Virus record (IMG/VR): IMGVR_UViG_3300035142_000030
Coordinates: 12,722-76,721 of that record
Reading direction: 5' to 3' (one strand)
Length of the DNA: 64,000 nucleotides
From: a virus
Under the pieces are notes generated by a model. It was not told where the DNA came from and did no database searches. It saw only the letters and a program-made list of their open reading frames with translations. The number at the start of each line of letters is the position of its first letter. Within the stretch, counting starts at the first letter, position 1. Position numbers and translations under genes: made by a program. This document shows positions 2,762 through 61,183 of this stretch, one piece after another.

Positions 2762-5700
2762 TGAACGATATTACAGATCAAATATTATTTACAGGTGGAT
2801 TAGATCAAGACTCAGATGAGAAGTTTATACAACAGGGAGATTATGTGGATGCTAAGAATATAATTACAGTTGAAGATGGGAGTAAAGGTATAGTTATTAA
2901 CATTAAAGGAAATGAGTTTATTTTTTCTGCTGGAGGATATGGAAACTATATATATGATTTACTAGGATGGACATATTATGACAGGACAAACAGCGTTATT
3001 TTATTTCTCAAAGGAGTTCAGACAGGTTCTCCAGTTGTGGGGCAATTAGAGCAAATTATAGAATATAATCCAGAAAGTGATTCGTCTACAGTTCTTATTG
3101 ATGACACCGATGTATCTTTAGGTTTTTTAGACCCCAAAACTAATGATTATTACATTGATATAAAAGTAGCAGGAGATTGGTTGGCATGGGCAGACAATGT
3201 AAATCCTCCTCGTATGATTAATATTGAAGACGTTAGGAATGGAAATATTACTATAAATGAGGCATATCTAGATTTACATAAAAAAAGACCAACAGCATCA
3301 TCAGCAAGCAAGCATATTCCTCCATTGGTTTCGTTGGGATATGATTCCGATAAAGAATACAACAATTTAGATACAGGATATCAATTTAAATATAGATTTG
3401 GTTATTCAGATTTTAGATATAGCACATGGAGTCCCGCTTCTGATTTGGCTATTAATCGTAATTTAGTTAGAGCGGGAGATAATTACAATTTGTTAGGGAC
3501 AGAGAATTACATTGATGTACAATTTAATTCGGGAGATGTTAATGTAGATTATATAGATATAGCAGTTCGTGAAGGAAATACTGGTAATTGGTTTCGTATT
3601 ATTAAGATAGATAAAAGCGATCCAGAAAAAGTATACAGTACAGGAGGTGTTTTACAAACAAGTGCATTGTCTGACGACACAGATTATGATTATAGGTTTT
3701 ATAATAATGAAGGTAGAATAGCTGTTAGTAATGACGAAGCTAATAAAGCTTATGACATCGTTCCAGATACATGTGAAACTTTATCTTTTATTGGGGATAA
3801 TAGATTAGTGTTAGGAGGATGTGTTGAGGGTAAAAATCTAATTAATATAGATGTTAGCTTATCTGCTTATGATGTTTCAATAAACCAATTTGAGTCTTTA
3901 GGAATTAGTTCCGTTACTTTTTCTGGAAACAAAGTATATGTTGATTTTGATCTTTCTAATTGTATTTTTGATGACAACGGTGAAGCTTTAGCAGGAGACT
4001 ATGTTTATTTTTATTATAGGGTTGAGGTAACCTTAACACTTGGTGCATCAGATACAGCTGAAGCTGATCCGACTTATTGTGTGTTTCCAAATAATATTAC
4101 GGGGATTGATAATATAGGAAATTATTTAGCAGACAATTTAACGATTGGAGATAGTAGAAGTTACAATAGTTCAACAAATGTATTGAGGATAACATATCAA
4201 TATCCTGGATACAATGTAACAGGTGTTCAGTCTCCACCTTACACGACTGACAGTTCCTTAATATTTACTAAATCATATGACTTAAACACCTCTACTACAG
4301 GGTACGTAAATGATTTAGGTTTTAGTGATGGAACTACTCATAAATTTGCATTAATTTATGAAGATAAATATGGAGTTAAGTATCCAGCACTAACATCTTC
4401 AGACACAGAAATAGAAATTGAACCGATATCCAGTGGTACAACTCCAAAACACAGGTCTATAAGCTATACTATAAATAATACAGCACCATCAGGAGCAGTT
4501 GCTTATAGATGGGCGTATGCTTACAAACAAAAGAATTTTGTACAAACAATTATAACAGATGTTAGTCAATTTGAAGACGAAACAGGAGACCTTAATACAA
4601 ATATGTTAGCTTTAGATGTATCAGGTTATAGTCAAATTGATAATTTTGGATATACCTTTGAATCTGGGGATCATATTCGCATAATAAGGGAGGGAGGGAG
4701 TTATGGTTCTCTTGGATCATATGTTGATGACGCTCCTTTTTTTGTTGTTGAAGACGTTAAGAGCGTTATTAATGATGGAAGTGACGATCTTTATGGGAAA
4801 TGGTTAATTATCAAACAATCTTTAGTAGACGGATATTCCATATCAAATATAGGAGACCCATCTAAATTTATGAACGCTTTTATAGAAGTGCGAAAGTTAG
4901 AAGAACAAGACCAAGATTATGTGTTTTATGAAATAGGTAGTGGAGGGTATTGTGTAGGCGGAACTACGAATCACGATGATTGGTTTACTGGAACAAATAC
5001 TGGATATCTAAATCAAGGAGACGTTTGGTATCGTAATATTGTTGGGTATAGGAGAGAAGCGTCTGGAAAGGGTTCTGTTTCAGCAGGATCACCTTTTGGG
5101 CAGTCTCCACTTCCTTATGTAAATGCGCCCCGTAGGGATGTTGGGATTGCAGATGTTAATGTTGAATTTCCAGAATCAGAAAATAAATATTTTAACATTA
5201 TACGATGGTCTAATAACTTTATAGAAGATACTAAGGTAAATGGTTTGTCTACATTTGACAATTTAGATAGAGTTAAAGTATCTGAAAATCATGGAAAGAT
5301 TAAAGGATTAGAAGAATTAGGAGATAGTTTAGTTGTTATATGTGAAGAAAAGGTACTTAGTTCATATGTAGGAGCTACAGAGTATACAGATACGCAAGGA
5401 AATGTTAATGTAGTAAAAAGTACTACACCATTAAGTTACTTAAGGGCGCACAACGAAAGATATGGAACGTTCTTAAAAGAAAGCATTGTAAATACGGGTA
5501 GTTATATATACTTCTATGATTTATATAATGGAGTTGTAGTGCGCAAGTCTAAAAATGGATTATATCCTATATCTGGAAGAATAGAAACTTCTAATGGAGG
5601 GTATGACTATAAAATGAGAACATTCTTTAAACAGATATCTGATGATTTAGTTTCTACATTAGAAGATAATGACGTTTATGATGTTAAATGTTTTATGGGA

Positions 5701-6309
5701 TATGATCCATATTATGAGAACATTTACATTAAATTTTTAGATAGACAAACAGCAGCTAACAACAAATGCCTAATCTTTCACGAGCCATCAAATAGGTGGA
5801 TCGGAGAATATGAAGTAGATGATGGTAGTAATAAGTCTACATTATTCCCTTTTACTAAAAAAGATATATTTAGTTTTATTGAATCAGATGGAGGTTTATA
5901 TATATTAAACAGCGACAATGTTAATAGATGTAATATTTATGGATTAGCAAGAAGCTGTTACATCCAATTCGTAACGCATGAAAAACCTAATCTAATAAAA
6001 GTATTTAACAGCATAGGTATACATGCAGACAGCCAATGGACAGTAGACCCTATAGAAGGGGAGGCGAATAGCAACTATCCTAATGGATTCTATTCTAAGA
6101 TTATAGATAGCGAATTTATCAAAGAAGAAGGAGTGTGGAGAGTAGCTATGCCTCGAAATATGAAGACGCGTAGTTCGTCAGCAACTAATTACGATAGAAT
6201 TAACGGTGATGAAGCTCGCGGATATGTATTAAAGTTTAAATTGACCAATAGTGATACTGATGAAGCTAAACTATTTAAAGTGGACATTAATTCAATAGTG
6301 AGTAAGTAA
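2761..6309 (+). CDS. Tail muzzle/nozzle (P22 gp10-like stabilization) protein
   Basis: 1182 aa beta-rich; N-terminal FTGGLDQDSD..GDYVDAKN, WADNVNPPRMINI, C-terminal KEEGVW..INGDEARG as seen in crAss-like muzzle proteins. Confidence 0.75.
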   Translation: MNDITDQILFTGGLDQDSDEKFIQQGDYVDAKNIITVEDGSKGIVINIKGNEFIFSAGGYGNYIYDLLGWTYYDRTNSVILFLKGVQTGSPVVGQLEQIIEYNPESDSSTVLIDDTDVSLGFLDPKTNDYYIDIKVAGDWLAWADNVNPPRMINIEDVRNGNITINEAYLDLHKKRPTASSASKHIPPLVSLGYDSDKEYNNLDTGYQFKYRFGYSDFRYSTWSPASDLAINRNLVRAGDNYNLLGTENYIDVQFNSGDVNVDYIDIAVREGNTGNWFRIIKIDKSDPEKVYSTGGVLQTSALSDDTDYDYRFYNNEGRIAVSNDEANKAYDIVPDTCETLSFIGDNRLVLGGCVEGKNLINIDVSLSAYDVSINQFESLGISSVTFSGNKVYVDFDLSNCIFDDNGEALAGDYVYFYYRVEVTLTLGASDTAEADPTYCVFPNNITGIDNIGNYLADNLTIGDSRSYNSSTNVLRITYQYPGYNVTGVQSPPYTTDSSLIFTKSYDLNTSTTGYVNDLGFSDGTTHKFALIYEDKYGVKYPALTSSDTEIEIEPISSGTTPKHRSISYTINNTAPSGAVAYRWAYAYKQKNFVQTIITDVSQFEDETGDLNTNMLALDVSGYSQIDNFGYTFESGDHIRIIREGGSYGSLGSYVDDAPFFVVEDVKSVINDGSDDLYGKWLIIKQSLVDGYSISNIGDPSKFMNAFIEVRKLEEQDQDYVFYEIGSGGYCVGGTTNHDDWFTGTNTGYLNQGDVWYRNIVGYRREASGKGSVSAGSPFGQSPLPYVNAPRRDVGIADVNVEFPESENKYFNIIRWSNNFIEDTKVNGLSTFDNLDRVKVSENHGKIKGLEELGDSLVVICEEKVLSSYVGATEYTDTQGNVNVVKSTTPLSYLRAHNERYGTFLKESIVNTGSYIYFYDLYNGVVVRKSKNGLYPISGRIETSNGGYDYKMRTFFKQISDDLVSTLEDNDVYDVKCFMGYDPYYENIYIKFLDRQTAANNKCLIFHEPSNRWIGEYEVDDGSNKSTLFPFTKKDIFSFIESDGGLYILNSDNVNRCNIYGLARSCYIQFVTHEKPNLIKVFNSIGIHADSQWTVDPIEGEANSNYPNGFYSKIIDSEFIKEEGVWRVAMPRNMKTRSSSATNYDRINGDEARGYVLKFKLTNSDTDEAKLFKVDINSIVSK

Positions 6310-18303: not shown

Positions 18304-18436
18304 TTATACAACGTTAAGCTTATGATACGTTGCGTTTAATAACATAACTTTTTGATAAAAATAAAAATTATATAAAATGAATATACTTAACAAATTAGCA
18401 AAATGTAAGCAATGGATTATACGCATTGTTAGCAGT
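18304..18436. repeat. attC-like imperfect inverted repeat (array 1, site 1)
   Basis: ACAACGTTAAGCTTATGATACGTTGC ... GCAATGGATTATACGCATTGTTAG; same subfamily as 38548-38677. Confidence 0.7.
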
Positions 18437-19263: not shown

Positions 19264-19355
19264 TGTCCCGTTTAGAGGTATATCCCGAAATAAAAAAAAA
19301 ACTCGTAGAGTTTTGGGGGTACGGGATGGGTTGTGGGAATACCGAGCAAGCAATG

Positions 19356-19431
19356 GTTTATAACACAGCGGGATTTATGGGACGGTTTGGGGCTTTTGCC
19401 CCAAAATGGACTATGAAATCACAGTTAGGCA
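19356..19431. repeat. attC-like site (array 1, site 2)
   Basis: GTTTATAACACAGCGGGATTTATGGGACGGTTTGGGGC-TTTT-GCCCCAAAATGGACTATGAAATCACAGTTAGGCA; extra G on the sense strand. Confidence 0.75.
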
Positions 19432-19445
19432 TAAAATTTTTTGAT

Positions 19446-19646
19446 ATGGAATTTATAGTAGAATTAGAAGAAGGTGTTTATTTGGCTACTTGGTCTGGCG
19501 ACCCTGGGCGAACACTAAAGATTGAAAACGCACAAGTATTTGTCCGCGATAAAGATGCTGATAATGCTCTTGTTAGAGCCAGATATTATAGACCATTTAA
19601 GTATGCCAAAGTGCGAAGGCAAAAGGAAGGGTTGCGAAGCAGCTAA
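19446..19646 (+). CDS. Hypothetical cassette protein (MEFIVELEEG...)
   Basis: Likely true start is 19446, since the upstream part of the track ORF is repeat DNA; bounded by 13-bp IR 19424-19436/19660-19672. Confidence 0.6.
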   Translation: MEFIVELEEGVYLATWSGDPGRTLKIENAQVFVRDKDADNALVRARYYRPFKYAKVRRQKEGLRSS

Positions 19647-19664
19647 GGATGGGGGGGATTTTTA

Positions 19665-19760
19665 TGCCTAACGGTTTGGCTATGTTTAGTAGCCTAACCA
19701 CTAACTTTGAAATATTTACTAAATTTGCATAGGCTATTAAATATAGCTTTTGTTATAAAC
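19665..19760. repeat. attC-like site (array 1, site 3)
   Basis: TGCCTAACGGTTTGGCTATGTTTAGTAGCCTA ... TAGGCTATTAAATATAGCTTTTGTTATAAAC. Confidence 0.8.
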
Positions 19761-19799
19761 TTTTAAGGGGGCTTCTTCGGAAGTATCAGCAGAAGGGGA

Positions 19800-19874
19800 A
19801 CTTCGATAGCACAGTTGGTATGAGGCAACGACTTCAAACATCGTATATCGTAGGTTCGATTCCTACCGAATGAC
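19800..19874 (+). pseudogene. Degenerate tRNA-like sequence, apparent anticodon TCA
   Basis: TAGC..TGGTA D-region and GTAGG-TTCGATT-CCTAC T-arm; anticodon and acceptor stems imperfect. Confidence 0.4.
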
Positions 19875-20024
19875 TTAAAACGAGGCGTTACTGCACGCCT
19901 ACCCTCTGCCCCCTTAATTGTTTTATAACTATTAAATAAACACACCTGCATTAAAACTATTATATTTAATATAAATTTTAATATAAAAATCAAGAATTAC
20001 CATAAAATTAGGGGAAATTTTTAT

Positions 20025-21400: not shown

Positions 21401-22684
21401 ATGGATACACAATTTTTTACAATAGATGAAATATCAGCCAAAAACTTTAAAGGGCTTAAAGATTTTAAAGCTGACCTAAATAATGTTTCTGTAATATTAT
21501 CAGGATCAGAAGGAGTAGGCAAGTCTAATATCTATCATTTGGTTGAAGGATTAAGAAAATTTAAAGGAGCTAAAATTACTAAAGGGGAAAAAGAAGGTAG
21601 TGGAGAGATCAGCATAAGTAAAGGGGACACTAACTATCGATTCTGCTTTAGTTTTACAGAGGACAATAAACATAAACTAACAACATATGTAGATGGAGAA
21701 GCTAAACCGATAACAAAAGCAAGGCAAGCTTATATTTTAGAACAACTATTAGCTCCAACATTTGATATTGATGCCTTATTAAACTCTTCAGGACAGAAAC
21801 AAGCAGAAATGGTAAAAGAGGCTTTACGGATAGATACTGTAAAAGAAGAGGCATACTACCAACAGAAGTTTGAAGAAAGAAGAGATTTAAAAAGGGATTT
21901 ATCTAAAAATCCTAAACCAGAAGAAGTGCCGGAAGCTAAAGAGGTAGACATAAATGATCTTTTAAAGCAGAAAAAGGCGATAGAAGAATTTAATGCTGAA
22001 CAAGACGCTAAACAAAAGATTATAGATTTCTATTTATCTATGAGTAAGAAGTTAGATAAACAGATTACCGATCCTGGTTCAGATGCTTACCTTAAACATA
22101 TAGCTACCTCTAAAAACATGCATAAAGATATTATTAAGTTTATCACAGAAAACATTTTCAAGTTAGATCAACCTAAAAAACATAAAACGCTTGAAGATGT
22201 AAATAGAAGCCTTGAGGGTGCGCAAAAGACTAACGAGAACGCTTTAGCTTATAAAAAATATTTGAGCTCTATAAAGGCTTTTAATGAGCTTAAAATAAAA
22301 GTTGATAAAGCAGAAGATGAAGTAAAGGAGGCTAGAGAAAGATTGTTAAACAAGATGAAGCAAGTGGACATTCCTGTGGACGGGCTTGAACTAGATATGC
22401 AGATGTCAGATAGTGGAAAGATAAGCACTACATTAACTTATAATGGGCTAGAGATGAACGATGCTAATATTAATACGAGTAAAAAATACGCCATTGCAGC
22501 TTACTTACAAATGAATTTATTTAAAGAAGGGAATCTAGGAGTATTCCATGTTAATTCTTCATTTATGAGTAATTCTACATTGCAAGATATAGCAAGGGAG
22601 TGTAGAAGATTAAATTTACAATGTCTTTTTGAGATAACTAGTAGAAAAGCTAATGAACCACTTAAAGTTGAATCTATTTTATAA
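21401..22684 (+). CDS. SMC/Rad50-like P-loop ATPase
   Basis: ISAKNFKGL, Walker A GSEGVGKS, central coiled coil. Confidence 0.75.
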   Translation: MDTQFFTIDEISAKNFKGLKDFKADLNNVSVILSGSEGVGKSNIYHLVEGLRKFKGAKITKGEKEGSGEISISKGDTNYRFCFSFTEDNKHKLTTYVDGEAKPITKARQAYILEQLLAPTFDIDALLNSSGQKQAEMVKEALRIDTVKEEAYYQQKFEERRDLKRDLSKNPKPEEVPEAKEVDINDLLKQKKAIEEFNAEQDAKQKIIDFYLSMSKKLDKQITDPGSDAYLKHIATSKNMHKDIIKFITENIFKLDQPKKHKTLEDVNRSLEGAQKTNENALAYKKYLSSIKAFNELKIKVDKAEDEVKEARERLLNKMKQVDIPVDGLELDMQMSDSGKISTTLTYNGLEMNDANINTSKKYAIAAYLQMNLFKEGNLGVFHVNSSFMSNSTLQDIARECRRLNLQCLFEITSRKANEPLKVESIL

Positions 22685-35379: not shown

Positions 35380-35545
35380 GCCGTAAATTTTACATACCGC
35401 TAACAAGCGGTCATAGTTAATAAAGCCAATTAAGTTTAGTTCGTTGTAGGTTGCGGTAGTGGGTGGCTTTACTAACCATACCGCATCTACGTTACAGACA
35501 ATTGCCCGCACGGCATTCCGCACGGGCTATCGCTCACAACCCACT

Positions 35546-35902
35546 CTAAATTTTGTTTAGAATTTGTTCCAACGCCCAATACTCTGGATTTGCAAGAGCA
35601 GTAACTACATTATTAATATCACAAATACTAATAATCAGCCAAATACATAAAATGATTGCAAGTATAACAATTGCAATCCAATGTCCAACTTCAGTATCAT
35701 TATCATAGCATTTTTGATAATTTTTAGCAAACCATTTTATGTATCGCACATATGGTATAATTAAGAGAAAAGAAATAATGATTAAGGTAATTCCCACAAA
35801 TGCATCAATAGGTGCTTGCTTAATCATAACTCCCCACAAGTATTCGGTCGTTGTACCAAGCTTACTTGCTAAGCTTTCTAATAATGTTGTTAATTCATTC
35901 AT
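35546..35902 (-). CDS. Membrane protein (cassette)
   Basis: LASKLGTTTEYLWGVMIKQA, two TM segments, NPEYWAL; bounded by a 14-bp IR. Confidence 0.7.
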   Translation of the reverse strand: MNELTTLLESLASKLGTTTEYLWGVMIKQAPIDAFVGITLIIISFLLIIPYVRYIKWFAKNYQKCYDNDTEVGHWIAIVILAIILCIWLIISICDINNVVTALANPEYWALEQILNKI

Positions 35903-36280
35903 TTTAATATAATTTAGTTAAACAAAATTTTCTAATGTCAATTGTCTGTAACAGTCGCCTAAATACAGCATTCGTCGCAGCTTCGTATCAAATTGGTTCA
36001 TATCGTATTGAAACCCTAAGGCAACTATCTGTAACTACTAAATACAAGCCAGCGAGACAAGCTCGCCATCGTGTATTTAGGCGACTGTTAGATTCCATAC
36101 TCCCACGGCATTCCCACAAACCCCGCTACGCCCCACCGCACAAAAACCATCGTATGAAATCTAATGGTACGGCAAGTAGTACCACTCGCTCAATACCATT
36201 TACGTATCTGAATCTTATTACTTCCTCCAACGTACAGAATCTAACTGTCAAGTCAGAGGAAAGTAATTTTAGAACTCATT

Positions 36281-36505
36281 CTAAACAATACGTTTACAGC
36301 TTAATTCCCAATGTACTTGTTCGGCAACTTTTAATCTACGAACTGAACTTTTTCCAGTTTCAGGTAATTTGCCTTCATTTAACCATAATAATATCATTTG
36401 TATAAAGTTGCCTGCTGGCAATTCTACTTTTTGACCTTTACCATCTATATAATAAACTGTATCAGTCAATTCGCTGTAAACTAATTCTTTTTTTTGCTCA
36501 ATCAT
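36281..36505 (-). CDS. Hypothetical protein within hairpin loop
   Basis: 74 aa ORF between inner arm (36242) and right arm (36537-36572). Confidence 0.6.
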   Translation of the reverse strand: MIEQKKELVYSELTDTVYYIDGKGQKVELPAGNFIQMILLWLNEGKLPETGKSSVRRLKVAEQVHWELSCKRIV

Positions 36506-36675
36506 TTCTATATAATTTTATCTGTTAATAAACAATGTTCTAAAATTCCCATCCACTACTTGCCGTACCATTGTAACTCAATTGACAGCTCTCCATCCGC
36601 ACAAGGCTTCCCATCCGCCCCGCAAAATACCAAAGCAATTGAGTTACAACGCTCGGAGTTCATTCGATGTAAAAA

Positions 36676-36930
36676 TTATGAAACACCGAGTTTATGAGCT
36701 TCTTCATCAAATGCAATTTTTATATTTGTAATTTCAGTTTGAATTTCTAATAAAAGTTCATGAAATTCTTGTTGCTTATCTTCAATTTGTTTGTCAGCAA
36801 ATTGCATTTTTGAAATTATGTTCTCCTTATAAGCATAAGCAGAGTTCAAATCATTTTTTAATTTTGTGTGCTTAGCTTTAAGAACATCAAGTCTATTTAA
36901 GTAATTACCATACTGTTCTTGAAAATTCAT
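36676..36930 (-). CDS. Coiled-coil hypothetical protein between outer and inner arms
   Basis: 84 aa ORF. Confidence 0.6.
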   Translation of the reverse strand: MNFQEQYGNYLNRLDVLKAKHTKLKNDLNSAYAYKENIISKMQFADKQIEDKQQEFHELLLEIQTEITNIKIAFDEEAHKLGVS

Positions 36931-37121
36931 AATTTTTACCTTTCTATATTTAAGTTTATAATGTTCGATACGTCACAGCGTACAACTACGTGTAATGCAG
37001 AATTGCTACAATCGAATGATGCCGATTTACGGCTTTACTTTGCCTTGCGGCAAATCGCCGCAACTCAGCATACACTCCGAGCGTTATGCGTAAAAATACC
37101 CGCATCCTAGTTCGCTAACGC

Positions 37122-37217
37122 TCACCCATCCGCATCCTCCCACTTATCAATATACAATTTTAGCTTATAAATAAGTATTCCTATTACAATTCCGATTCCT
37201 ATTAATATTAAATTCAT
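37122..37217 (-). CDS. 31-aa membrane peptide cassette (MNLILIGIGIVIGILIYKLKLYIDKWEDADG)
   Basis: Only ORF within the 16-bp IR 37083-37098/37225-37240. Confidence 0.5.
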   Translation of the reverse strand: MNLILIGIGIVIGILIYKLKLYIDKWEDADG

Positions 37218-37374
37218 ATCCAAATATTTTTACGCATAACACCAGAGAAAATATACCGTCCCGCAGGAGACGTTCTCCAGTATCTGCAAGTTTATATTCC
37301 TAATATTTCTACTCATAACTAAAAAATCATAGCACATTAAAATCAAAACTCTGTGTTTAATAAAATAAAGCCAA

Positions 37375-37725
37375 TTAATATATATTCTTTCTACCCCTGT
37401 CAGCGTGCAATGGTACTAAATGATCACACGAACCGCAAAAATGTTTAGCTTTAGTCTCCCAGTAAATTCCTTCAGAATGTGTATCAAAAAGCGAATTACA
37501 ATTGCTACACATCTCAATATGGTCTGGTAGTAAAGGAAAATGTTCTTGTAAATAATAAATTATTGCAAACGCTTTTTTAGCTGTCATCTTTGGCTGATGC
37601 CCACGCTTAAAAGAAAGTTGTTCAGGTAATTCACCTTGTAAAAAATTGTAAAATTCTTCTATCCATTCAAGGTCTGTATCAATCCTCTGATCATTATTTT
37701 TAAGCAATTTTATTTCATTGTACAT
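37375..37725 (-). CDS. Zn-finger hypothetical protein within hairpin loop
   Basis: CSNC ... CGSC; enclosed by TAAAATAAAGCC/GGCTTTATTTTA IR. Confidence 0.65.
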   Translation of the reverse strand: MYNEIKLLKNNDQRIDTDLEWIEEFYNFLQGELPEQLSFKRGHQPKMTAKKAFAIIYYLQEHFPLLPDHIEMCSNCNSLFDTHSEGIYWETKAKHFCGSCDHLVPLHADRGRKNIY

Positions 37726-37865
37726 AAGGCTTTATTTTTAATTAGTACTAAATTTATAATCATATTTTACCTGTAATTTCATCAAGTTTCAATCAATGTT
37801 TTAATTTTACCGTCCCATATTTTCTCTGGTGTTAGAAAACATGCCGTTTCGAACGGACGCAAAAA

Positions 37866-38147
37866 TCATTTTGCTTTCTTATATTTAGAGCCTTTACTAT
37901 TACAAAAATCACATATTGCATTGTTAGGTTTGTTAGATATACATGAACTGCAAAATTTCCATTTTTGCTCATGTTTTCTAACGGTTTCACGTTCGTTTGA
38001 TATTAAAATTTGATTGATAAAGTCATTCAATTGGACTATAGCGTATTCAACAGACAACATATCTAATGTGTCTTCATCTCCAATTGTATCAAGTCTATCC
38101 ATTAATATCTTACGTATTCCATCAGTATAATCTTTTTTATGTTTCAT
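37866..38147 (-). CDS. Hypothetical protein reading through a repeat arm
   Basis: NERETVRKHE is encoded by outer arm 37970-37992; Cys-rich tail. Confidence 0.55.
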   Translation of the reverse strand: MKHKKDYTDGIRKILMDRLDTIGDEDTLDMLSVEYAIVQLNDFINQILISNERETVRKHEQKWKFCSSCISNKPNNAICDFCNSKGSKYKKAK

Positions 38148-38320
38148 AATATCAAATTTTAATTATTAATACTAATTTAGTTTATCAATTCTCAACGTCA
38201 CGATTTTCTAACCAACGTTTATGCTTAATTAAAGCTATCAAACGATGCTCCGTTAAAGCTTTTCTTGCGTTTCACGCAACCGCTTTAACAAAGCATACAC
38301 GTGAAACCGTTAGAGTGCAT

Positions 38321-38608
38321 TTAATCCAAGTGAATAAGCATTTCTCCCCACGCACTTCTACCTTTCACTTTCGGTAGTGATGTGTAGTGTAGTGTCATTC
38401 CTGTAAATTCACACTCTTTGTTATTTAAACTTTTTTTAACCATCCAGTCTTTTGCTTCTTTCCTTATAATATCATCTTCATTGTTTCGATGCCAGCCCAC
38501 GCTAATTATCAAATTACCAATTCTAATTTTACTAAGTGAAAAACGCACTCTAACAATAGATAAAATCCATTGCTTAAAATGTGCTAATTCGTTACGTAAG
38601 TATTTCAT
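38321..38608 (-). CDS. Hypothetical cassette protein starting inside the repeat
   Basis: MKYLRNELAHFKQWILSIVRVR is homologous to the N-terminus of 18377. Confidence 0.6.
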   Translation of the reverse strand: MKYLRNELAHFKQWILSIVRVRFSLSKIRIGNLIISVGWHRNNEDDIIRKEAKDWMVKKSLNNKECEFTGMTLHYTSLPKVKGRSAWGEMLIHLD

Positions 38609-38764
38609 ATCAATGTTTTTATAAGTTTGAAAATTCAGTTCATTAAATCGCAACGTATCTTATCAGAGCCGTTGCACACAATGCCCCATCTAGGGGACGT
38701 GCGACTCGCTATCGCTCCTGTCGCACTCATTGTGTGCAACAGTTTGGCGTTAGCTTGTAAATAA

Positions 38765-38941
38765 TTATTCGCTCAGTACTTCTAAACTATAAGATGATAC
38801 ATAATCAATCTTTTTACCAACTATTACAACTGCATACGGTATATCATCAGCTCCCCGCACGTATCCATCAATGTATCCAACATCTCCAACCTTAAACATC
38901 ATATGTTGGTATTCTTTAATAATTTTAACTTTTGTCTTCAT
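38765..38941 (-). CDS. 58-aa hypothetical protein (MKTKVKIIKEYQH...GYIDGYVRGADDIPYAVV)
   Basis: Clean ORF between duplicated TGTGCAAC cores; below the track size cutoff. Confidence 0.55.
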   Translation of the reverse strand: MKTKVKIIKEYQHMMFKVGDVGYIDGYVRGADDIPYAVVIVGKKIDYVSSYSLEVLSE

Positions 38942-38976
38942 AATTATTTATTTAGTTATTTGTTAATTTCTGCTTA

Positions 38977-39147
38977 CTAGATGGTGCACAATGTGCAACT
39001 AGCGTTTATGCGTAATTGTAATAGGCAATTTCCAATCTCCCAGTAACTTGCGCCTAAACGTTCCAATATCATTTCAGCTTTCTCAAAGCTCCAACTTTTA
39101 TAACATTGATAAAAGTTCCCTTTATAGGTATACATTATATGAATCAT
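38977..39147 (-). CDS. Hypothetical protein ending in a repeat arm
   Basis: MIHIMYTYKG...LGASYWEIG; tail QLRINASCT is encoded by the arm. Confidence 0.5.
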   Translation of the reverse strand: MIHIMYTYKGNFYQCYKSWSFEKAEMILERLGASYWEIGNCLLQLRINASCTLCTI

Positions 39148-39532
39148 AATTTTATATTTAAAGTTTGTACTAAATTTTAACAATACCCTAAAAATCCTTC
39201 CCATATCTTTCGGAGTGTTATGGCTCAATTTCGCTACGCTCTACGATGACTTCATTTAATTGAGCCATAACGAGACAACGTATGAAGTACAGGCTCAGTG
39301 TACTATATTAATTCTATTTTAATTTATCCGCTCAACTAGAGCATAACTACATATAAGCGTAATACTATGAGCCTTACTTCAAAGCTCTCAGAATATTTCA
39401 CCGATAAAAATCGGCTCATATTCCTACGCTTATACGTTGTCTCGTTAGTAGCAAGCGGGTTCAGTTCTCGTATCAAACATTGTGCGTATTTGAAAGAAAA
39501 AGAAAAGCCCCGCCCGCTTTTGGCAAAGCCAA

Positions 39533-40147
39533 TTAGGATAAAGCTGCAAGTAGTTCAGTTACCCACTTATTTGAATCTTCACATCTTTTCAATTCTGCAT
39601 TGTGTTCTTTTGTGTGGTATTCAATATCCCAGTTGGCATCTGCAATCATATCCTTTCTAATATCAGCAGCATTTATGTTTTCTAATTGAGAATCTATCTT
39701 GCTTAACTCATCATCGTGGTACTTTGTGTCTCCATCGTGGTCAATAGTTGTCACTATCTGTTCAATCATAAATTTAGCAATTCCTTCGTGGTCTTTTGTT
39801 GGTGGTTTGAAATCCCTTGCTTTAATTAAAAACTCATCAAGTTTAACCCTTGCTTTTTTTATTTCCTTAATTCTTTCGGTGTGATAGGTTCTACTTTCTT
39901 TTATCTGTTTTTTGCGAGAGGCAATTATTTCAGAATCGGTAAGTTTCTCAGCTTGATTTAATTTTTCATTAGCTGTTTTTAACGCTTTAATATGGTAATC
40001 GCTCGGCGTTCTTGGCACGTACTCTTTATTCATACTTTCATCTCTCATATGTATAGTTGCTCCAAAAGCTCTCATACATTGTTTTGCAAAATCTTGGAAT
40101 GTTTCGGTTGTGCCGTCAATAATTCCTGCTGTGTAACCTGTTGGCAT
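39533..40147 (-). CDS. Conserved phage hypothetical protein (MPTGYTA-type)
   Basis: 204 aa helical; MPTGYTAGI..TFQDFA..CMRAFGA. Confidence 0.7.
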   Translation of the reverse strand: MPTGYTAGIIDGTTETFQDFAKQCMRAFGATIHMRDESMNKEYVPRTPSDYHIKALKTANEKLNQAEKLTDSEIIASRKKQIKESRTYHTERIKEIKKARVKLDEFLIKARDFKPPTKDHEGIAKFMIEQIVTTIDHDGDTKYHDDELSKIDSQLENINAADIRKDMIADANWDIEYHTKEHNAELKRCEDSNKWVTELLAALS

Positions 40148-40574: not shown

Positions 40575-40832
40575 TCATAAATTTCGTTGTTTCTGAATGT
40601 TAATGTCAGATTTACGCTGTGTTCTGTACTCTCCATCTATTTCAAATATTTCTAGATTATTATATATTTTATGTTTAGGCTTAATCCCATCACGTACTCT
40701 AAACCATCCCATAATAGTATCACGAGGTATATTTAATAAATCCCTTAAAACACCTTTATTTTTACATAGATATTGTTCTCCTGTACTACGGTCTCTTACA
40801 AATACTTTAGTAGTTCTTCTAAATATTATCAT
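40575..40832 (-). CDS. Small DNA-binding protein (NUMOD1-like)
   Basis: VFVRDRSTGEQY..LRDLLNIPRDTI. Confidence 0.4.
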   Translation of the reverse strand: MIIFRRTTKVFVRDRSTGEQYLCKNKGVLRDLLNIPRDTIMGWFRVRDGIKPKHKIYNNLEIFEIDGEYRTQRKSDINIQKQRNL

Positions 40833-41359
40833 TTTCTTATTTGTGTAAGTGGATTAATATACTTTAGTCCCTCTTTCATCCTATCGTGGAATTGCCTATT
40901 AAGGTATGATTGCCTGGGGTTGTTCCCAAATTTAGCAATTATCATTGCCCTCACTGCTTCTTTTGATATGCCAAGCTCTTTACCTATTTTAGTATACCAC
41001 CAACGCTTATTGGTAAATAGATGATATGCCTTCTCTTTAATATCGTTGGGTATCTCTTTACCTTCAATGTTAAGTGTTAGATTCTCTTTATCGTTGTTTT
41101 GGATATCTCCGTCTTTATGTATCACTTTAGCGTGAGGGTTGAATATTCCATAAAACATCAAATATTTGAACTCATCTACCGACACATCCACACGAAGCGA
41201 ATAACCGAGCATTAATCGGTAGATGTATTTCTTATTTATAAACATCACTTTTACGGGTCTTTTCTGCTTTGTATTTAATAGCTCTTCTTTTTTAGTGTCA
41301 AAGGTATACTTACCGATAGAAAGTGCCCCTAAACAAACGTACTGAGTTTTTAAATCCAT
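40829..41359 (-). CDS. Degenerate HNH-HTH protein
   Basis: VIHKDGDIQNNDKENL; C-terminal HTH YTKIGKELGISKEAV. Confidence 0.55.
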   Translation of the reverse strand: MDLKTQYVCLGALSIGKYTFDTKKEELLNTKQKRPVKVMFINKKYIYRLMLGYSLRVDVSVDEFKYLMFYGIFNPHAKVIHKDGDIQNNDKENLTLNIEGKEIPNDIKEKAYHLFTNKRWWYTKIGKELGISKEAVRAMIIAKFGNNPRQSYLNRQFHDRMKEGLKYINPLTQIRK

Positions 41360-47050: not shown

Positions 47051-47647
47051 TTATAGCACATCAGGCTTGAACTCAAAGATATATGCTTTATGCCTAGTTT
47101 CATCTTTTAAATATCGATTAATTGTTTTGCGATCTACACCGAAATGTTTAGCCGCATCGACAACAGAATCAAACTGTAATTGTTCCCTGGTTTGTATGTG
47201 TGTGGTTAATATAGGTTTTTTCTTTGCATTTGACATTTTTATGCGTGTTTCAAGGTTGTGCGGAGGTTTTATTTTGCCTTTCCAATAACTATTCCTTTGT
47301 CCTGTCTGAAAGGATTTTAATATGTTTTCGCTATGAGTTACCCACTCTAAGTTAGATATATGATTATTTAACTTATCGTGGTCAATATGGTTAACCTCTT
47401 TCTTATATTTATTGTCGCTATATCCCTTGAAAGTGATTAATACGAGCCTATGAGCGAAGAATATCTTTGTGCGTGGTTTATCTCTGTTCTCTTCTGTCTT
47501 CTCTTGCGTAAGATGGTATAATATATAGCCACAACTATTTAGTTGAGGTTTTAAGAATCTTTGCTTTCTGATAGAATACACATCACCGTTTTCATATATA
47601 TAATATAAGTTTTCAAATCCTGGTAACATTATTGTTTTTCTTTTCAT
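47051..47647 (-). CDS. NUMOD4-HNH homing endonuclease with NUMOD3/NUMOD1-like tail
   Basis: GFENLYYIYENGDV, HRLV, VNHIDHDKLNNHISNLEWVT, FDSVVDAAKHFG. Confidence 0.9.
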   Translation of the reverse strand: MKRKTIMLPGFENLYYIYENGDVYSIRKQRFLKPQLNSCGYILYHLTQEKTEENRDKPRTKIFFAHRLVLITFKGYSDNKYKKEVNHIDHDKLNNHISNLEWVTHSENILKSFQTGQRNSYWKGKIKPPHNLETRIKMSNAKKKPILTTHIQTREQLQFDSVVDAAKHFGVDRKTINRYLKDETRHKAYIFEFKPDVL

Positions 47648-48023: not shown

Positions 48024-48031
48024 TATATTTG
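48024..48031 (+). promoter_or_regulatory. Bacteroidota -7 promoter element at head of array 3
   Basis: TATATTTG. Confidence 0.55.
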
Positions 48032-48208
48032 TATAAAATAAAATATAATATGTGAATGTACTAAGTTTATTTGATGAGATATCATCAAAGCTACTTCATC
48101 TTAATGGAGTCTAATGGTTGAGTATATGAGTAGTGTCCCAAACGTACAGTGGGACGCACATAAATTTTAAAAAATGTACAAACGAGAATATAAACTATAA
48201 AAACACGA

Positions 48209-48625
48209 GTGATGAAAAATTTAAAACAGGCATTAATTGAAAATATCGCTGACATTTTAGATAGTGAAGATGTACGGTGTGAAGAGGTGTTAAACGGAAT
48301 TTCCGACCCGATAAAAAGAGAAAAAAGCGAGTTGCATATAAGGATGGCAGAAGCTGCACTTGCTGAATACAAAAGAACGTGCGAGGACAGGGCAATGGAA
48401 TTAGATATTGAAATATTTGACAAAAACAGAAAGGTATTACATATAGGTAGTATTATAAGCCGTTATTTATTTAAACTTGCAGAAAAGCACGATAAAGATG
48501 TTGAAGATTTACTACTAGGTATAGAACTAAGCCAACCAATTAGAGATGATGGAAAGAACATCATAGAATTAGTGGACTTAGACCTTAATAGAATTGACAA
48601 GGTTTTATGTTCTAATGGCTTATAA
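48209..48625 (+). CDS. Hypothetical cassette protein reading through a repeat arm
   Basis: KVLHIGSIISR is encoded by the arm; stop codon falls in the next core (TATAAC). Confidence 0.55.
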   Translation: MMKNLKQALIENIADILDSEDVRCEEVLNGISDPIKREKSELHIRMAEAALAEYKRTCEDRAMELDIEIFDKNRKVLHIGSIISRYLFKLAEKHDKDVEDLLLGIELSQPIRDDGKNIIELVDLDLNRIDKVLCSNGL

Positions 48626-48709
48626 CGTTGAATGTATGGGTAGGGCGTGAAATACCTGCAGCCCTACACGCGATAGATAAACATTAAATAACATAAATAG
48701 CGAACGATT

Positions 48710-49105
48710 ATGAAACACGTAATAGAATTACTTACAGAACAATTAGAATTGATTAGTGACGAAATAAGATATGCAGAAGGTGAAGAACTGAAACAGTTAG
48801 ACTGCAGAAACACAGAAATAGGGACTGCTCTTAAAATACTGCAGTTAGTGAGCGGTGTAAATACGGAGAACGAACAAGCCTTACCTATACATATTGTTAG
48901 GGTTTGTGCTTGGGAGGATGCTGCAGACGAGGATAAAGTACCATTTTTAGAAAAAGCTGCAGAACTTGCAGGTGATTCAATGTTTTGTACGCGCGTTTGG
49001 AGTGCGTGGGGAGTTGGAACTATGAGCGAGAACGACTTTGTTGATGCTGCAGATGATGATGATTACGTATACGAAATAGCAAAAGCGATTTGGGAGGGGT
49101 ATTAA
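48710..49105 (+). CDS. Hypothetical cassette protein reading through a repeat arm
   Basis: QALPIHIVRVC is encoded by the arm; C-terminal domain CTRVWSAWGVGTMSENDF. Confidence 0.6.
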   Translation: MKHVIELLTEQLELISDEIRYAEGEELKQLDCRNTEIGTALKILQLVSGVNTENEQALPIHIVRVCAWEDAADEDKVPFLEKAAELAGDSMFCTRVWSAWGVGTMSENDFVDAADDDDYVYEIAKAIWEGY

Positions 49106-49255
49106 CCCTAACGCCTTAAAGCGTAAACTCCGTTACATGGAGAACGTAGTTCGGGAATGTAACGAGTTTAAAATGCTGTAATGGAGTTTACGCATAGTTA
49201 CAAACCGTGCCAATGGCACAAAGATTATTAGAATGTTGAACTTAAAATAAATTTT

Positions 49256-49405
49256 ATGAAACGTTTATGTAAAATGAAACCATATTATGTAATACCAAGA
49301 GTATTTTATATATATGCTGGCTATACTGGATTAGATAATGGATTAGCAATAGGTTGGCTTGGCAGAATGTTTATTATAATTATTCCTGTTAATGAAAGGG
49401 AATAA
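49256..49405 (+). CDS. 49-aa hypothetical peptide between inner and outer arms
   Basis: MKRLCKMKPYYVIPRVFYIYAG...LAIGWLGRMFIIII. Confidence 0.45.
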   Translation: MKRLCKMKPYYVIPRVFYIYAGYTGLDNGLAIGWLGRMFIIIIPVNERE

Positions 49406-49744
49406 AATTTATGCATTTTAGCTTTAAGGCGTTACAAAACCATAGGCAAACAGTGGAAACGGTGAGCGAAGCGAATAAGTTTCGTTTGCCGTGCCTCGAT
49501 GGCATGGTTTTGTAACGTACGTGTATACGCCTGTTGGTATGATTATTAATAGTATAAACTTAAATTAATAAATAATAAAATTACGTAAATTCGCAAAAAT
49601 AATAAAGACAACGAAAACAGATTTGCAGAAATGATAATACCCAGAAAAGATATTGATATAATAATTAAGAGACAAAGATCAATATTATAACAAAGTGTTA
49701 ATCAAAAATTGAATGAATAATAAACGTATTAAATATATAATATT

Positions 49745-49912
49745 ATGATAGAGCGATTTGAAGCTTTAATAGGACAATATGAAGCTGAACTAAAGAAATT
49801 ACTTAATGAATTTCGAAAAGCTGAACCATCTCCACATAAATCTGAATTAGAGATTATGATTAGGGAAAAAAAAAGAGTAATTTCTGATTTAAAGTGGGTT
49901 TTAGTTTATTAG
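49745..49912 (+). CDS. 55-aa hypothetical protein
   Basis: MIERFEALIGQYEAELKK... Confidence 0.4.
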   Translation: MIERFEALIGQYEAELKKLLNEFRKAEPSPHKSELEIMIREKKRVISDLKWVLVY

Positions 49913-49960
49913 AATAACAAACTTTAAAAAATTATTAAAAATTTATAAAAAATATGAGCG

Positions 49961-50134
49961 ATGGTAACAAGCGACAATTATTACGAAAAGAAAATTAAAA
50001 ACAGTATTGGGAAAAGATTCACACAAAAAGAAGCAATTGAATTTGAAAGAGAAATGATTAATTCCCCAACTGGCACTAACAATTATACATGGTTTGATAG
50101 TAAAACAAAACAGCCAATTGCGTTTAATTATTGA
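49961..50134 (+). CDS. 57-aa hypothetical protein
   Basis: MVTSDNYYEKK...; ends just before the 50136 site. Confidence 0.4.
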   Translation: MVTSDNYYEKKIKNSIGKRFTQKEAIEFEREMINSPTGTNNYTWFDSKTKQPIAFNY

Positions 50135-50230
50135 GCGGTAACGGTGGCAATAAGATTAAGCGTAGCGACCCGTAGGGTTAATTTTATTGCGTGTTATACA
50201 CTAGCACGAATTATTACTAAAGATGATTAA

Positions 50231-51211
50231 ATGAACGAAAGTAGCAATAACAGTTTTTTGAGCGTTGGTGGAAAAGCCGAAGGGATAAATGTAGTAAGTA
50301 TGTTTGATGGTGCAAGCTGTGGACAAATAGCTTTAGAAAAAGCAAAAGTAATGGTAAAAAATTATGTTGCTTCTGAAATAAAGCCACATGCTATAGTAAC
50401 ATCTAAATTACATTACCCAAACACTATACATGTTGGAGATGTTAGATACTTGCATGTAGTAAATACGGGTGTTGAAGTTAATATTAATAGAGCACAATAT
50501 AGAACAATAGGAATTGGATTAATTGATTTAATAATCGGTGGTAGCCCCTGCAAAGGGATAAGCAGATTAAACAAAAATCAAGAAGGGTTAAAGCACAAGG
50601 AAAGTATTTTATTTTGGGAGTTTGTGAGGGTTTTAGAACAAGCTAAACTGTGTAACCCAGATGTATATTTTTTACTTGAAAATACGCACGGAAATAAAGA
50701 AGCAACTCAAATAATAACTGAGACATTAGGCGTTAAACCTATTAGCATTAACAGTAAACTTGTTACAGCACAAAATAGACCTAGATACTATTGGACAAAT
50801 ATACCAGGCATTGAGCAACCAAAAGACAAAGGAATAACGACCAACGATGTTTTTAAATACAACGGGGACATAGTAGATGATTGTAGGGTAAAATGGCTTA
50901 ATAACGATAGTGGTAAAAACTCTGTAAAAAAAGGATACACAAGAATAAACCCTTACCCTAAAAGTGGTTGCTTAACTGCCAATGGACATAAAAAATGGAA
51001 CGAGAATTATTTGTATAAAGATGGTGTGTACAGATATTTATCTAAAGAAGAGCTAGAGGTATTGCAAACATTTCCAATTGGATATACAAAACATTTAAGT
51101 TATGATGATGCTTATGATTTAATTGGCGAGGCTTGGACGATTGATATTATAGCACATATATTTTCTTATTTGCCGATAGGCAAAAGAGGGGGAGAAAAAG
51201 ATGTATGTTAA
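50231..51211 (+). CDS. dcm: C5 cytosine DNA methyltransferase
   Basis: SMFDG (motif I), GGSPC (IV), FLLEN (VI), QNRPRYYW (VIII). Confidence 0.9.
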   Translation: MNESSNNSFLSVGGKAEGINVVSMFDGASCGQIALEKAKVMVKNYVASEIKPHAIVTSKLHYPNTIHVGDVRYLHVVNTGVEVNINRAQYRTIGIGLIDLIIGGSPCKGISRLNKNQEGLKHKESILFWEFVRVLEQAKLCNPDVYFLLENTHGNKEATQIITETLGVKPISINSKLVTAQNRPRYYWTNIPGIEQPKDKGITTNDVFKYNGDIVDDCRVKWLNNDSGKNSVKKGYTRINPYPKSGCLTANGHKKWNENYLYKDGVYRYLSKEELEVLQTFPIGYTKHLSYDDAYDLIGEAWTIDIIAHIFSYLPIGKRGGEKDVC

Positions 51212-55305: not shown

Positions 55306-55638
55306 ATGGAAAGACAAAGTTTAAATGATGCGAAAAAGTTAAAGCAGGTAAAGAAACATCTGTTTGACAATCGCAAGACTTTAACAGAGGATCAATTTTC
55401 TGATCTTATTCAAAGTCTTGCTCAAGAAGTATATGCTTATGCGTATAACGAAGGGTGGAAAGCACGTAATCAAATTACTAGGTCTTGTTCTACTGCACGT
55501 AGAATAAGAATGAGACAAGACTACAGTAATTTCCATGCAGAACAAGTAGCTGCTATTCGGGATATTGATGGCACAAAACCTCTTAACCTAAATCAATTAG
55601 AAATAATTTGGGATAAATTAATTAGAGATTGGATGTGA
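55306..55638 (+). CDS. Hypothetical protein
   Basis: 110 aa ORF. Confidence 0.55.
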   Translation: MERQSLNDAKKLKQVKKHLFDNRKTLTEDQFSDLIQSLAQEVYAYAYNEGWKARNQITRSCSTARRIRMRQDYSNFHAEQVAAIRDIDGTKPLNLNQLEIIWDKLIRDWM

Positions 55639-55667
55639 TCTCGGTAGTATTAACAAATAAAAAGTAT

Positions 55668-56396
55668 ATGAAGGAATATGCACCAAGAATACGCTTAAAT
55701 CAAGAAGAATATGATTTAATAATAAAGCGTAGAAAAGCTAATAAAGAAAACCGAAATTTAATAGTAGGTGATTTACATGCTCCGTTTATTTTAGAAGGAT
55801 ACTTAGATTTTTCAATAGAAATGTATGATAAGCACAACTGCAATAACGTTATTTTTATAGGAGACTTAATAGACAACCATTTCTCATCATATCACGAAAC
55901 AGATGCAGACGGTATGGGAGCAGGAGAAGAATTGAGCAAAGCTAAAGAAATGATACAAGTATGGCACGACACTTTTCCTAACTCAAAAGTATGCTTAGGT
56001 AATCACGATTTGATAGTTGCCCGCAAAGCGCAAACATCAGGATTATCTCAACAATGGATTAGAACCTTATCCGAAGTTTTAGAAACTCCAACATGGGAAT
56101 ATGATGAAGAGTTTTATATAGATGATGTAATGTATTGTCATGGCACTGCTAAAAAAGCTAAAGCAAGGGCTAAAAACGAACTCATTAGCGTAGTGCAAGG
56201 TCATTATCATTCAGAATCTTATGTAGAACATTTAGTGGGTAAATATAGACACATATGGGCGCTTCAAGTAGGATGTGGAATTGATAAAGATTCTTATGCA
56301 ATGTCTTATGGAAAACATTTTCCTAAGCCTCACATTAACGTAGGTATCGTTTTAGAGAACGGAACATTACCATTTTTAGAATACATGAAATTATAA
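55668..56396 (+). CDS. Calcineurin-like metallophosphoesterase
   Basis: GDLH, GDLID, GNHD, HG, GHYH motifs. Confidence 0.9.
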   Translation: MKEYAPRIRLNQEEYDLIIKRRKANKENRNLIVGDLHAPFILEGYLDFSIEMYDKHNCNNVIFIGDLIDNHFSSYHETDADGMGAGEELSKAKEMIQVWHDTFPNSKVCLGNHDLIVARKAQTSGLSQQWIRTLSEVLETPTWEYDEEFYIDDVMYCHGTAKKAKARAKNELISVVQGHYHSESYVEHLVGKYRHIWALQVGCGIDKDSYAMSYGKHFPKPHINVGIVLENGTLPFLEYMKL

Positions 56397-60709: not shown

Positions 60710-61183
60710 ATGGAACATATTAATAGACCTTATGTATACCTTATTACAGATTGTAGATATTATAAAATAGGGAAAAGTTTAAATCCATTTAAAAGACTAA
60801 AGCAATTGAGAACAGCAAATCCAAATTGCGAACTACTTGGATATTCTAAAAAATATACAGAAAAGACTTTGCATAAAAGATATAAGAAGTGGAAAGTTTC
60901 TGGCGAGTGGTATAATTTGCCTCAATATGAAGTGGAGCATATATTATTAGTTATGCGTTCACCTAAAAAGAAAAGAAGTCACGTAGAGTTTAAGAAAATG
61001 GAGATGTCTAATTATGTTGTGCCATATGGAGAATATAAAGGCAGAAAGTTAAATACAATGAATAGCGTTGACGAAATAAGGTATCTTAGAAAACAAATAA
61101 GAGAATTGCCAAGATTATGTGAAGAGTGGGTAATGTTTACAAGGTGGAATAAAGAATGGATTATTAATAATCCTGTTAAATAA
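60710..61183 (+). CDS. GIY-YIG superfamily (T5orf172-like) nuclease
   Basis: YVYLI...YKIGKS..P.KRLKQL.T.NP...EK.LH.....GEWY. Confidence 0.8.
   Translation: MEHINRPYVYLITDCRYYKIGKSLNPFKRLKQLRTANPNCELLGYSKKYTEKTLHKRYKKWKVSGEWYNLPQYEVEHILLVMRSPKKKRSHVEFKKMEMSNYVVPYGEYKGRKLNTMNSVDEIRYLRKQIRELPRLCEEWVMFTRWNKEWIINNPVK

Follow-up and report, generated by a model that had tools for sequence, protein, structure and literature searches.

Hairpins with AAC and GTT feet and gene-enclosing stems in a flavobacterial-type phage: candidate edges of structure-defined gene cassettes

Introduction

In integrons, the attC site lies 3' of the cassette gene, the junction falls at the 3' GTT of the gene-sense strand, and the strand that is recombined is the antisense one. 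Here we describe hairpins with an AAC core at their 5' foot and a GTT core at their 3' foot, situated among small genes of a phage genome, with emphasis on the stretch that we call array 3 (48109-50199) and on its last hairpin, site E. The window analysed is a 64,000-nt stretch of DNA taken from the IMG/VR virus record IMGVR_UViG_3300035142_000030 (positions 12722-76721), which is complete at 76.7 kb and bears direct terminal repeats, and all coordinates given without a contig name are positions in it. Its G+C content is about 30%, gene direction is tracked by G/C skew, the structural proteins are distantly akin to counterparts in Cellulophaga and Flavobacterium phages, and the phage is of flavobacterial type. 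Three regions of the window are conspicuous in local folding:

~19300-19920 (array 1, 19300..19920), + strand genes: nested layout
35380-39540 (array 2, 35380..39540), - strand genes: ten small genes with structured elements between them
48100-50230 (array 3), + strand genes: sites A to E and five small genes

The arrays resemble integrons in several respects: small co-oriented genes with imperfect hairpins between them, structure that is kept while sequence is not, an AAC/GTT core at the foot of the hairpin followed by stem, unpaired spacer, stem and variable loop, and strand-specific unpaired or wobble features. The junctions are likewise hybrid: beyond the core, the sequence finds its pairing partner at the opposite end of its own cassette, the arms across a gene being the cognate ones here. 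In integrons, the bottom strand is preferred, and roles were described for extrahelical bases, an unpaired central spacer and a variable terminal structure (PMC6393395).

The promoter-early stem-loops (PeSLs) of T4-type phages carry conserved promoter and terminator sequences, are repeated within a genome and involve homologous recombination (PMC2839356). Like the elements described here, they are short, structured and intergenic, they flank small non-essential genes of hyperplastic regions and mark the ends of the indels and replacements by which related phages differ, and circular mini-cassettes were proposed or observed (PMC2839356). The closest logic is that of integron cassettes and the closest setting that of T4-type PeSL cassettes. 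In the literature we found no description of such sites in phages, and there is a substantial chance that they represent a separate system.

Site E and its family

Site E is the last element of array 3 and has the following layout:

50140..50195, + strand: site E, bounded by AAC at 50140 and GTT at 50193; its apical loop of 19 nt is invariant
50147-50159 / 50178-50190, + strand: site E stem, with one G.T pair

Site E is 87% identical to an intergenic stretch of the Winogradskyella phage Peternella_1, where the flanking genes are unrelated (blastn); site E alone was matched in the search of cultured-phage DNA, which returned no relatives for arrays 1 and 2. Exact-pattern scans for the loop gave matches in 5 viral contigs and 114 metagenome contigs, as well as single copies in Algibacter, Arenibacter and Cryomorphaceae assemblies, some chance matches in G+C-rich coding DNA being included. 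The family amounts to about 100 copies across aquatic metagenomes, viral contigs and Peternella_1. A host repeat of the REP type was ruled out, since site E is single-copy in each of the three bacterial assemblies.

The 76 distinct variants follow a common plan, composed of (T/C)AAC, G, a spacer of 4-5 nt, the stem, a near-invariant 19-nt loop, the returning stem, a spacer of 2-3 nt and (T)GTT(A/G). The spacers are unequal, the 5' one (mode 5 nt) being longer than the 3' one (mode 2-3 nt). AAC is followed by G in 83% of the copies and GTT is preceded by T in 87%, which makes a further sense-strand G.T and agrees with the preliminary description of this DNA, where an 'extra G' had been placed on the sense strand. 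Covariation was observed at stem positions 3 and 6-9, one stem position is G.T in 61 variants, A-T in 15 and A.C in none, and the family as a whole has 91 G.T against 6 A.C wobbles on the sense strand. Given this covariation and the 91:6 wobble bias, the fold is real and is formed on the strand that is sense to the neighbouring genes.

That the sites follow gene direction had been proposed from the three arrays, a proposal that random orientation in a larger set would contradict. Among the approximately 100 copies of the family, the nearest open reading frames (ORFs) are co-oriented with the element in 75 of 84 cases upstream (75:9) and in 72 of 80 downstream (72:8), so orientation is not random. 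The upstream stop codon usually lies within or just ahead of TAAC. Where the GTT core is inside an ORF at site E loci, it is read in frame 0 in 8 of 11 cases, and direct reading of the sequence gave frame 0 also for the window cores seen inside ORFs. The downstream genes are diverse (DNA-modification enzymes in 11/71, RecA, ribonucleotide reductase, Tad3, HNH and many unknowns); with only 11/71 coding for DNA-modification enzymes, the idea that site E is a methyltransferase-specific leader was ruled out.

In a search against Rfam 15, matches above the gathering score were tRNAs only, and nothing credible was obtained for the arrays or site E at E-values up to 5-10. The apical loop (50160-50181), near-invariant in about 100 unrelated contexts (e.g. 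L001:1520-1560) and without an Rfam match, has the look of a tertiary motif or binding site that serves a separate function.

Such a loop is what would be expected if the elements functioned in mRNA. In that case hairpins and enclosing stems would punctuate polycistronic transcripts, by RNase III-like processing, as stabilisers or in translation control, and the recombination breakpoints described below would be secondary to modular exchange and selection. The sense-strand wobbles would then be G.U pairs, G.U alternating with A-U at one stem position, and the co-orientation of elements and genes would follow; no Rfam family matches, which argues against it. Weighing this together with the evidence from arms and breakpoints, we consider a function in mRNA unlikely, yet a serious competitor.

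Arms that pair across genes

The 11 nt that precede AAC have a complementary partner, starting with GTT, located 130-1000 nt upstream. The partner matches at 12 or more of 14 positions in 20 of 81 loci, in comparison with 2 of 340 mismatched controls, and the right flank of the hairpin shows the same behaviour towards a downstream partner. The 58 non-redundant arm pairs are 14-16 bp long: positions 1-4 are GTTA/TAAC, positions 5-9 are private to each pair but Watson-Crick, position 10 is A-T or T.T, and position 11, 11 nt from the core, is G.T in 36 of the 58, with the G in the 5' arm. Overall, these pairs contain 67 G.T and 12 A.C. The left and right flanks of one and the same hairpin pair no better than random or control pairs, and the possibility of chained repeats created by neighbouring hairpins that share one stem sequence was ruled out, as hairpin flanks are not complementary. 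Some arms are duplicated, a diverged copy with the G.T signature being accompanied by a nearer perfect copy (e.g. 36035 and 35952, or 49197 and 49431).

In the window, 15 perfect inverted repeats of at least 14 nt occur within 800 nt, against 0.7 in block shuffles; 12 of the 15 fall in arrays 2 and 3, most of them with GTT/AAC ends. Array 2 is composed of chained perfect inverted repeats of 12-19 nt with GTT/AAC ends, several of which surround whole genes. In array 1 the arrangement is nested, with outer arms at 19356 and 19752 and inner arms (19424-19436 / 19660-19672) that flank one small gene, and its hairpin at 19679-19747 (arms 19679-19696 / 19730-19747) has two G.T pairs. Past the core, the hairpins of the window have no sequence in common.

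Several of these features could also be expected of an RNA. The tandem U.U/G.U would be conserved at a fixed distance from the helix end, cistron-enclosing stems could direct processing or protect ends, and the arm beside the coding 5' arm keeps its complementarity in the diverged homologues L003 and L006. T7-like RNase III hairpins and rRNA processing stems offer imperfect sense-strand hairpins between co-transcribed genes, whole-gene-enclosing stems and non-Watson-Crick features at fixed positions; they differ in not being known as recombination breakpoints, and the present elements are known from DNA sequence alone. A purely mRNA-based function does not explain why hairpin flanks are non-cognate when arms across a gene are cognate. 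Moreover, many array 2 stems are perfect over 14-19 bp, as expected of recent DNA events and not of selection on RNA, and some arms are part of coding regions, so that translating ribosomes would disrupt their pairing. Two other RNA-level ideas were dropped: programmed ribosomal bypass, for which the take-off and landing codons do not match, and tRNA-type splicing, for which there is no bulge-helix-bulge.

Strand bias of the wobble pairs

The stems that the preliminary description had located in the three arrays are present there, and their arm mismatches are, as it had stated, mostly G-T on the sense strand. With G.T and A.C scored alike during arm extension, all stems of the three arrays together have 52 G.T and 23 A.C on this strand, and composition predicts a ratio of 1.2-1.5. 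On reading the list by eye, with no formal filter, the A.C cases are mostly in A+T-rich pairs that are probably due to chance. This bias at the level of pairs is strong and is the solid part of the strand argument. Strand-specific G.T pairs imply the folding of a single strand, either non-template or lagging-strand DNA or a transcript.

Folding energies, which the same description had suggested comparing between strands with DNA and RNA parameters, agree only in part. Energy is lower on the sense strand in 16 of 17 elements (RNA parameters, -790 vs -600 kcal/mol), but dinucleotide shuffles reproduce about three quarters of the difference and z-scores are alike for both strands with RNA or DNA parameters; the energy asymmetry is therefore weak evidence, and the sense-strand advantage is mostly base composition. 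That the bottom strand of integron sites folds better, a related statement, is true only in a weak sense, since the two strands of attC-aadA7 fold with similar energies and the canonical structure across attC sites is at 46% vs 36%, while the preference for the bottom strand is confirmed (PMC6393395).

The composition of the strand raises the question of whether a G- and T-rich sense strand simply yields apparent G.T pairs and better folding. The shuffles point in this direction, as does a short-motif scan of the window for arm signatures, which was noisy and did not separate strands or orientation. Nevertheless, chance does not account for 15 perfect repeats where 0.7 are expected, for covariation in 76 variants, for position-specific G.T in 36 of 58 arm pairs or for conservation in about 100 unrelated contexts; the wobbles of the family, the arm signature and the repeat counts refute this reading, to which we attach almost no probability.

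Breakpoints of homology

In an all-against-all comparison of site E loci, many alignments start 0-5 nt from AAC and continue downstream for hundreds to thousands of bases, the upstream sequences being unrelated. Breaks at the 5' AAC were found in about 10 independent groups of loci. L011 and L101 share 763 nt at 100% identity, from AAC to the next TAACG, with unrelated flanks on both sides; L086 and L096 share 672 nt at 98%; and L060, L080, L089 and L102 are 93-98% identical for as much as 3 kb, each of the four having a different upstream neighbour (further groups: L045/L074/L084/L113, L044/L097, L001/L041, L005/L055, L021/L040, L032/L115 and L071/L112). For shared modules whose 3' end is inside the contig, four ends coincide with the next (T)AAC(G) and one with a GTT. 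The near-identical phages L054, L080, L089 and L102 differ in the set and number of small cassettes in the segment that a conserved TAAC and the site E AAC delimit, and, in the window, 87.5% homology with L059 ends at TAAC 39447-39444.

The hairpin is linked to the gene downstream of it. Of the pairs of loci with a common variable part of the hairpin, 22 have the right flank in common as well and 0 have only the left flank in addition; one pair shares nothing but the left flank. From the breakpoints and this linkage, it follows that the unit of exchange is AAC-hairpin-GTT-arm-cargo-arm-T. The preliminary description had read the sites as inverted relative to integrons, and the breaks at the 5' AAC together with the downstream linkage (22 pairs vs 0) support that reading independently of the wobble argument.

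The hairpin is thus 5' of the gene and the junction is at the 5' AAC of the sense strand, a geometry opposite to that of integrons. Complementarity past the core extends over 13 nt instead of 6, strand markers are G.T and T.T pairs instead of extrahelical bases, no integrase, attI or Pc was recognised, and the setting is one of lytic and Mu-like phage genomes. Of the integron box features, a YAAC/GTTR core, an asymmetric spacer (~5 nt vs 2-3 nt) and a variable loop are found; RRRY is not conserved, nor is RYYYAAC/GTTRRRY as a whole. We do not regard these sites as members of the integron family.

One may still ask whether they are ordinary attC sites whose own integrase is missing and which are recombined by the integron integrase of a host. 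AAC/GTT cores, arms of which some read GTTAGGC/GCCTAAC, the succession of stem, unpaired spacer, stem and variable loop, and the arrays of co-oriented small genes would all suit this explanation. It is made very improbable by the linkage of the hairpin to the downstream and not the upstream gene, by folding of the sense strand, by conservation of YAAC/GTTR only, by the 13-nt pairing and by the lack of an integrase in the phage. In addition, among 201 genomes sampled from the family of the Algibacter genome G001, a site E carrier whose family may not be that of the phage's host, 0 reach the cut-off of the integron-integrase model TIGR02249.

Here, in contrast to PeSLs, what the hairpins of one genome have in common is limited to a core of 3-4 nt and a structural signature; arm sequences are private to each pair, and breakpoints have single-nucleotide precision. 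There is no repeated hairpin sequence, and no sense-strand promoter motif was found inside arrays 2 and 3.

A function in mRNA alone does not explain why modules of 100% identity in otherwise unrelated surroundings have AAC breakpoints, precise to a single nucleotide, at either end.

A model of cassette exchange

The balance of the evidence tips slightly towards the sites being the edges of DNA gene cassettes that are defined by structure and not by sequence. On the sense strand, a cassette would consist of AAC(G), the hairpin (spacer, stem and variable loop), (T)GTT, a 5' arm, the cargo, usually one small gene, and a 3' arm ending in T, after which the next AAC follows. A circular or looped-out cassette would carry one long hairpin, formed by the 3' arm, AAC, the inner hairpin, GTT and the 5' arm, which would be opened and joined at the AAC core within the stem. 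On insertion into another such site, the cargo would come to lie between the two arms, and every junction of an array would be hybrid. Exchange would proceed via a folded single strand cut at the AAC core, by an enzyme that may come from the host or be an unrecognised phage protein. This opening and insertion would account for the interlocking repeats, the nesting in array 1, the private arms and the exact breakpoints.

More specifically, we propose a 'hairpin-first' cassette system of aquatic Bacteroidota phages, in which AAC-core exchange would take place on the folded sense strand, the enzyme would be neither phage-encoded nor an integron integrase, and the apical domain of site E would be a new motif with its own function; this fuller proposal is tentative, being plausible but short of probable.

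A single-stranded DNA mechanism is also the basis of another explanation, according to which the elements are cargo-carrying, transposase-less relatives of IS200/IS605 whose single strands are moved by a Y1-HUH transposase of the host, with insertion 3' of a TAAC target and the GTT at the hairpin foot acting as a guide by pairing with the AAC cleavage sites. The single-strand logic, strand specificity, insertion by a fixed tetranucleotide, the hairpin near the left end and cleavage sites that could be read by base pairing are common to both: (T)AAC precedes and ends every module, one GTT is able to pair with either of two AACs, and tandem arrays would follow if the right end recreated the target. 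However, the phage has no Y1 transposase, the right end has a long-range stem where a second subterminal hairpin would be expected, cargo genes are carried, and hairpin sequences differ between cassettes, one transposase normally recognising one hairpin sequence. Site E is moreover present once per carrier bacterial genome and is not a host repeat. We regard this explanation as improbable.

Several observations weigh against the cassette interpretation. In the complete 76.7-kb genome there is no tyrosine recombinase (PF00589), serine recombinase, Y1-HUH (PF01797) recombinase or transposase, or reverse transcriptase, and the phage has no proteins in common with Peternella_1, a Mu-like phage that carries the same element. 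No excision products or variants were seen in the only sequencing run with the phage, a DNA run that probably represents the source sample; in it, one contig spans the region and there are no informative joints. No RNA run is listed as containing the phage. Equating one cassette with one gene is too simple, as there are cores in ORFs and AAC...GTT segments that contain gene starts. The invariance of the apical loop in site E suggests a further function, one that recombination does not need, the duplicated arms are not explained by the model, and breakpoints at module edges could partly reflect selection against gene-breaking recombinants.

Some genes of potential relevance were noticed in the window and in related contigs. 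HNH endonuclease genes adjoin the arrays, at 47051-47647 (-), with NUMOD1 and NUMOD4 domains, by array 3 and at 40829-41359 (-) by array 2; in Peternella_1 an HNH gene is likewise directly upstream of the hairpin region. A T5orf172/MUG113 protein is encoded further along (60710-61183 (+)). The phage also encodes an AAA_15 ATPase (21401-22684 (+)) and a calcineurin-like phosphoesterase (55629-56396 (+)), the latter with homologues in four site E-bearing contigs; if they formed an SbcCD-like hairpin nuclease, they could turn hairpins into recombination hot spots. The site E contig L003 carries, at 4941-5756, a 271-aa tyrosine recombinase (Phage_integrase, E = 1.5e-33) that is absent from the phage of the window and adjoins two GTT/AAC-ended repeat pairs.

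Organization of array 3

Besides site E, we were able to identify the following elements in and around array 3:

48024..48031, + strand: Bacteroidota-type -7 promoter motif TAnnTTTG, upstream of the array
48110..48160, + strand: site A, a degenerate first site in the 5' leader of gene 1, in which TAAT replaces TAAC
48133-48140 / 48150-48157, + strand: stem of site A, with one T.G wobble
48212..48625, + strand: gene 1, 137 aa, no family assigned
48624..48898, + strand: site B, an AAC...GTT segment (AAC-G-TTGA, stem, then AT-T-GTT)
48632-48646 / 48878-48892, + strand: stem of site B, with two G.T
48710..49105, + strand: gene 2, 131 aa, which crosses the GTT core, read as an in-frame Val
48896..49112, + strand: enclosing stem of the family type, 5' arm 48896-48909 pairing with 3' arm 49099-49112
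49110..49199, + strand: site C, an AAC...GTT hairpin (AAC-G plus 7 nt, stem, then ATA-GTT)
49121-49137 / 49177-49193, + strand: stem of site C, with one G.T
49109-49122 / 49421-49434, + strand: perfect 14-nt inverted repeat with TAAC...GTTA ends
49430..49517, + strand: site D, a perfect 14-bp stem (49430-49443 / 49504-49517) of the GTTAC...GTAAC type
49745..50134, + strand: genes 4 and 5, 55 and 57 aa, with no hairpin separating them
50231..51211, + strand: C-5 cytosine DNA methyltransferase, directly downstream of site E

Gene 1 ends in a TAA stop codon that coincides with the initial TAA of the TAAC core at 48623-48626. The spacers of site B are laid out exactly as in site E; within its 231-nt loop are a local hairpin (48641-48647 / 48662-48668) and codons 1-56 of gene 2. 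On direct reading of the sequence, the stem 48896-48909 / 49099-49112 shows T.T (position 10) and G.T (positions 11 and 13) and terminates in TAAC 49109-49112; an enclosing stem of array 3 therefore bears the arm signature of the site E family (T.T and G.T at 10 and 11). The perfect repeat 49109-49122 / 49421-49434 surrounds site C and gene 3 (49256-49405). Site D has a structured loop of 60 nt, its 3' arm can alternatively pair with 49197-49210, where the 5' arm is directly repeated, and the next AAC core is at 49514-49516.

After 48024..48031, the next + strand TAnnTTTG motif is found only at 50299. With no such sense-strand motif inside arrays 2 and 3, the elements should lie in long polycistronic transcripts, which speaks for a function in mRNA.

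Arrays 1 and 2

The intergenic elements of array 2 are 140-380 nt long, G+C-rich and non-coding, and the layout of small genes and elements is unusual for a phage. An origin as invertons was also considered: all genes of each array have a single orientation, and no inverted joints were found in the one available sequencing run. In-silico inversion of repeat-flanked segments gave no credible alternative ORFs, by which the intragenic-inverton idea was ruled out.

In array 2, the leader and N-terminal part (38530-38656 (-)) of the gene at 38321-38608 resemble 18327-18431 (+) and the metagenome contig L121, at 78-81% DNA identity, and the similarity stops just beyond the GTT arm. The same leader-sharing pattern was seen in L003 and L006, and these sequences suggest common N-terminal leaders fused to differing C-terminal parts. 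G-rich words recur on the sense strand in loops of arrays 1 and 2 (GGATGGG, GTGGGAATGCCGTGGG and similar; for example at 19325-19345, 35505-35540, 36100-36160 and 36590-36625) and are unexplained by the cassette model.

The array 1 hairpin at 19679-19747 has in its loop a full Bacteroidota promoter-like motif (TTTG, 17-23 nt, TAnnTTTG; 19675-19727). Further on, a tRNA-like fragment (19807-19866) scores 25 bits against the Rfam tRNA model, slightly below threshold, and has no ARAGORN call; D and T arms and the anticodon loop CUUCAAA are present in this fragment, which lacks an acceptor stem and is located inside a perfect 10-bp stem (19763-19772 / 19908-19917).

Implications

If these sites are the edges of true cassettes, the phages of a major marine bacterial group would have their own integron-like trade in accessory genes, based on sites that are defined by structure and have a geometry unlike that of every described system. 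In other contigs the cargo of site E includes DNA methyltransferases, an anti-Thoeris gene (Tad3), Mom and RecA, and the signature (arm, AAC, hairpin, GTT, arm) is searchable, so that it could be used to look for mobile counter-defence genes in metagenomes. Such exchange would explain part of phage mosaicism at single-nucleotide resolution and would point to an as yet unrecognised recombinase or nuclease. A cultured phage-host pair exists, Peternella_1 on Winogradskyella. If the fold works in RNA instead, the elements would represent a new and widespread system for the punctuation of phage polycistronic mRNAs.

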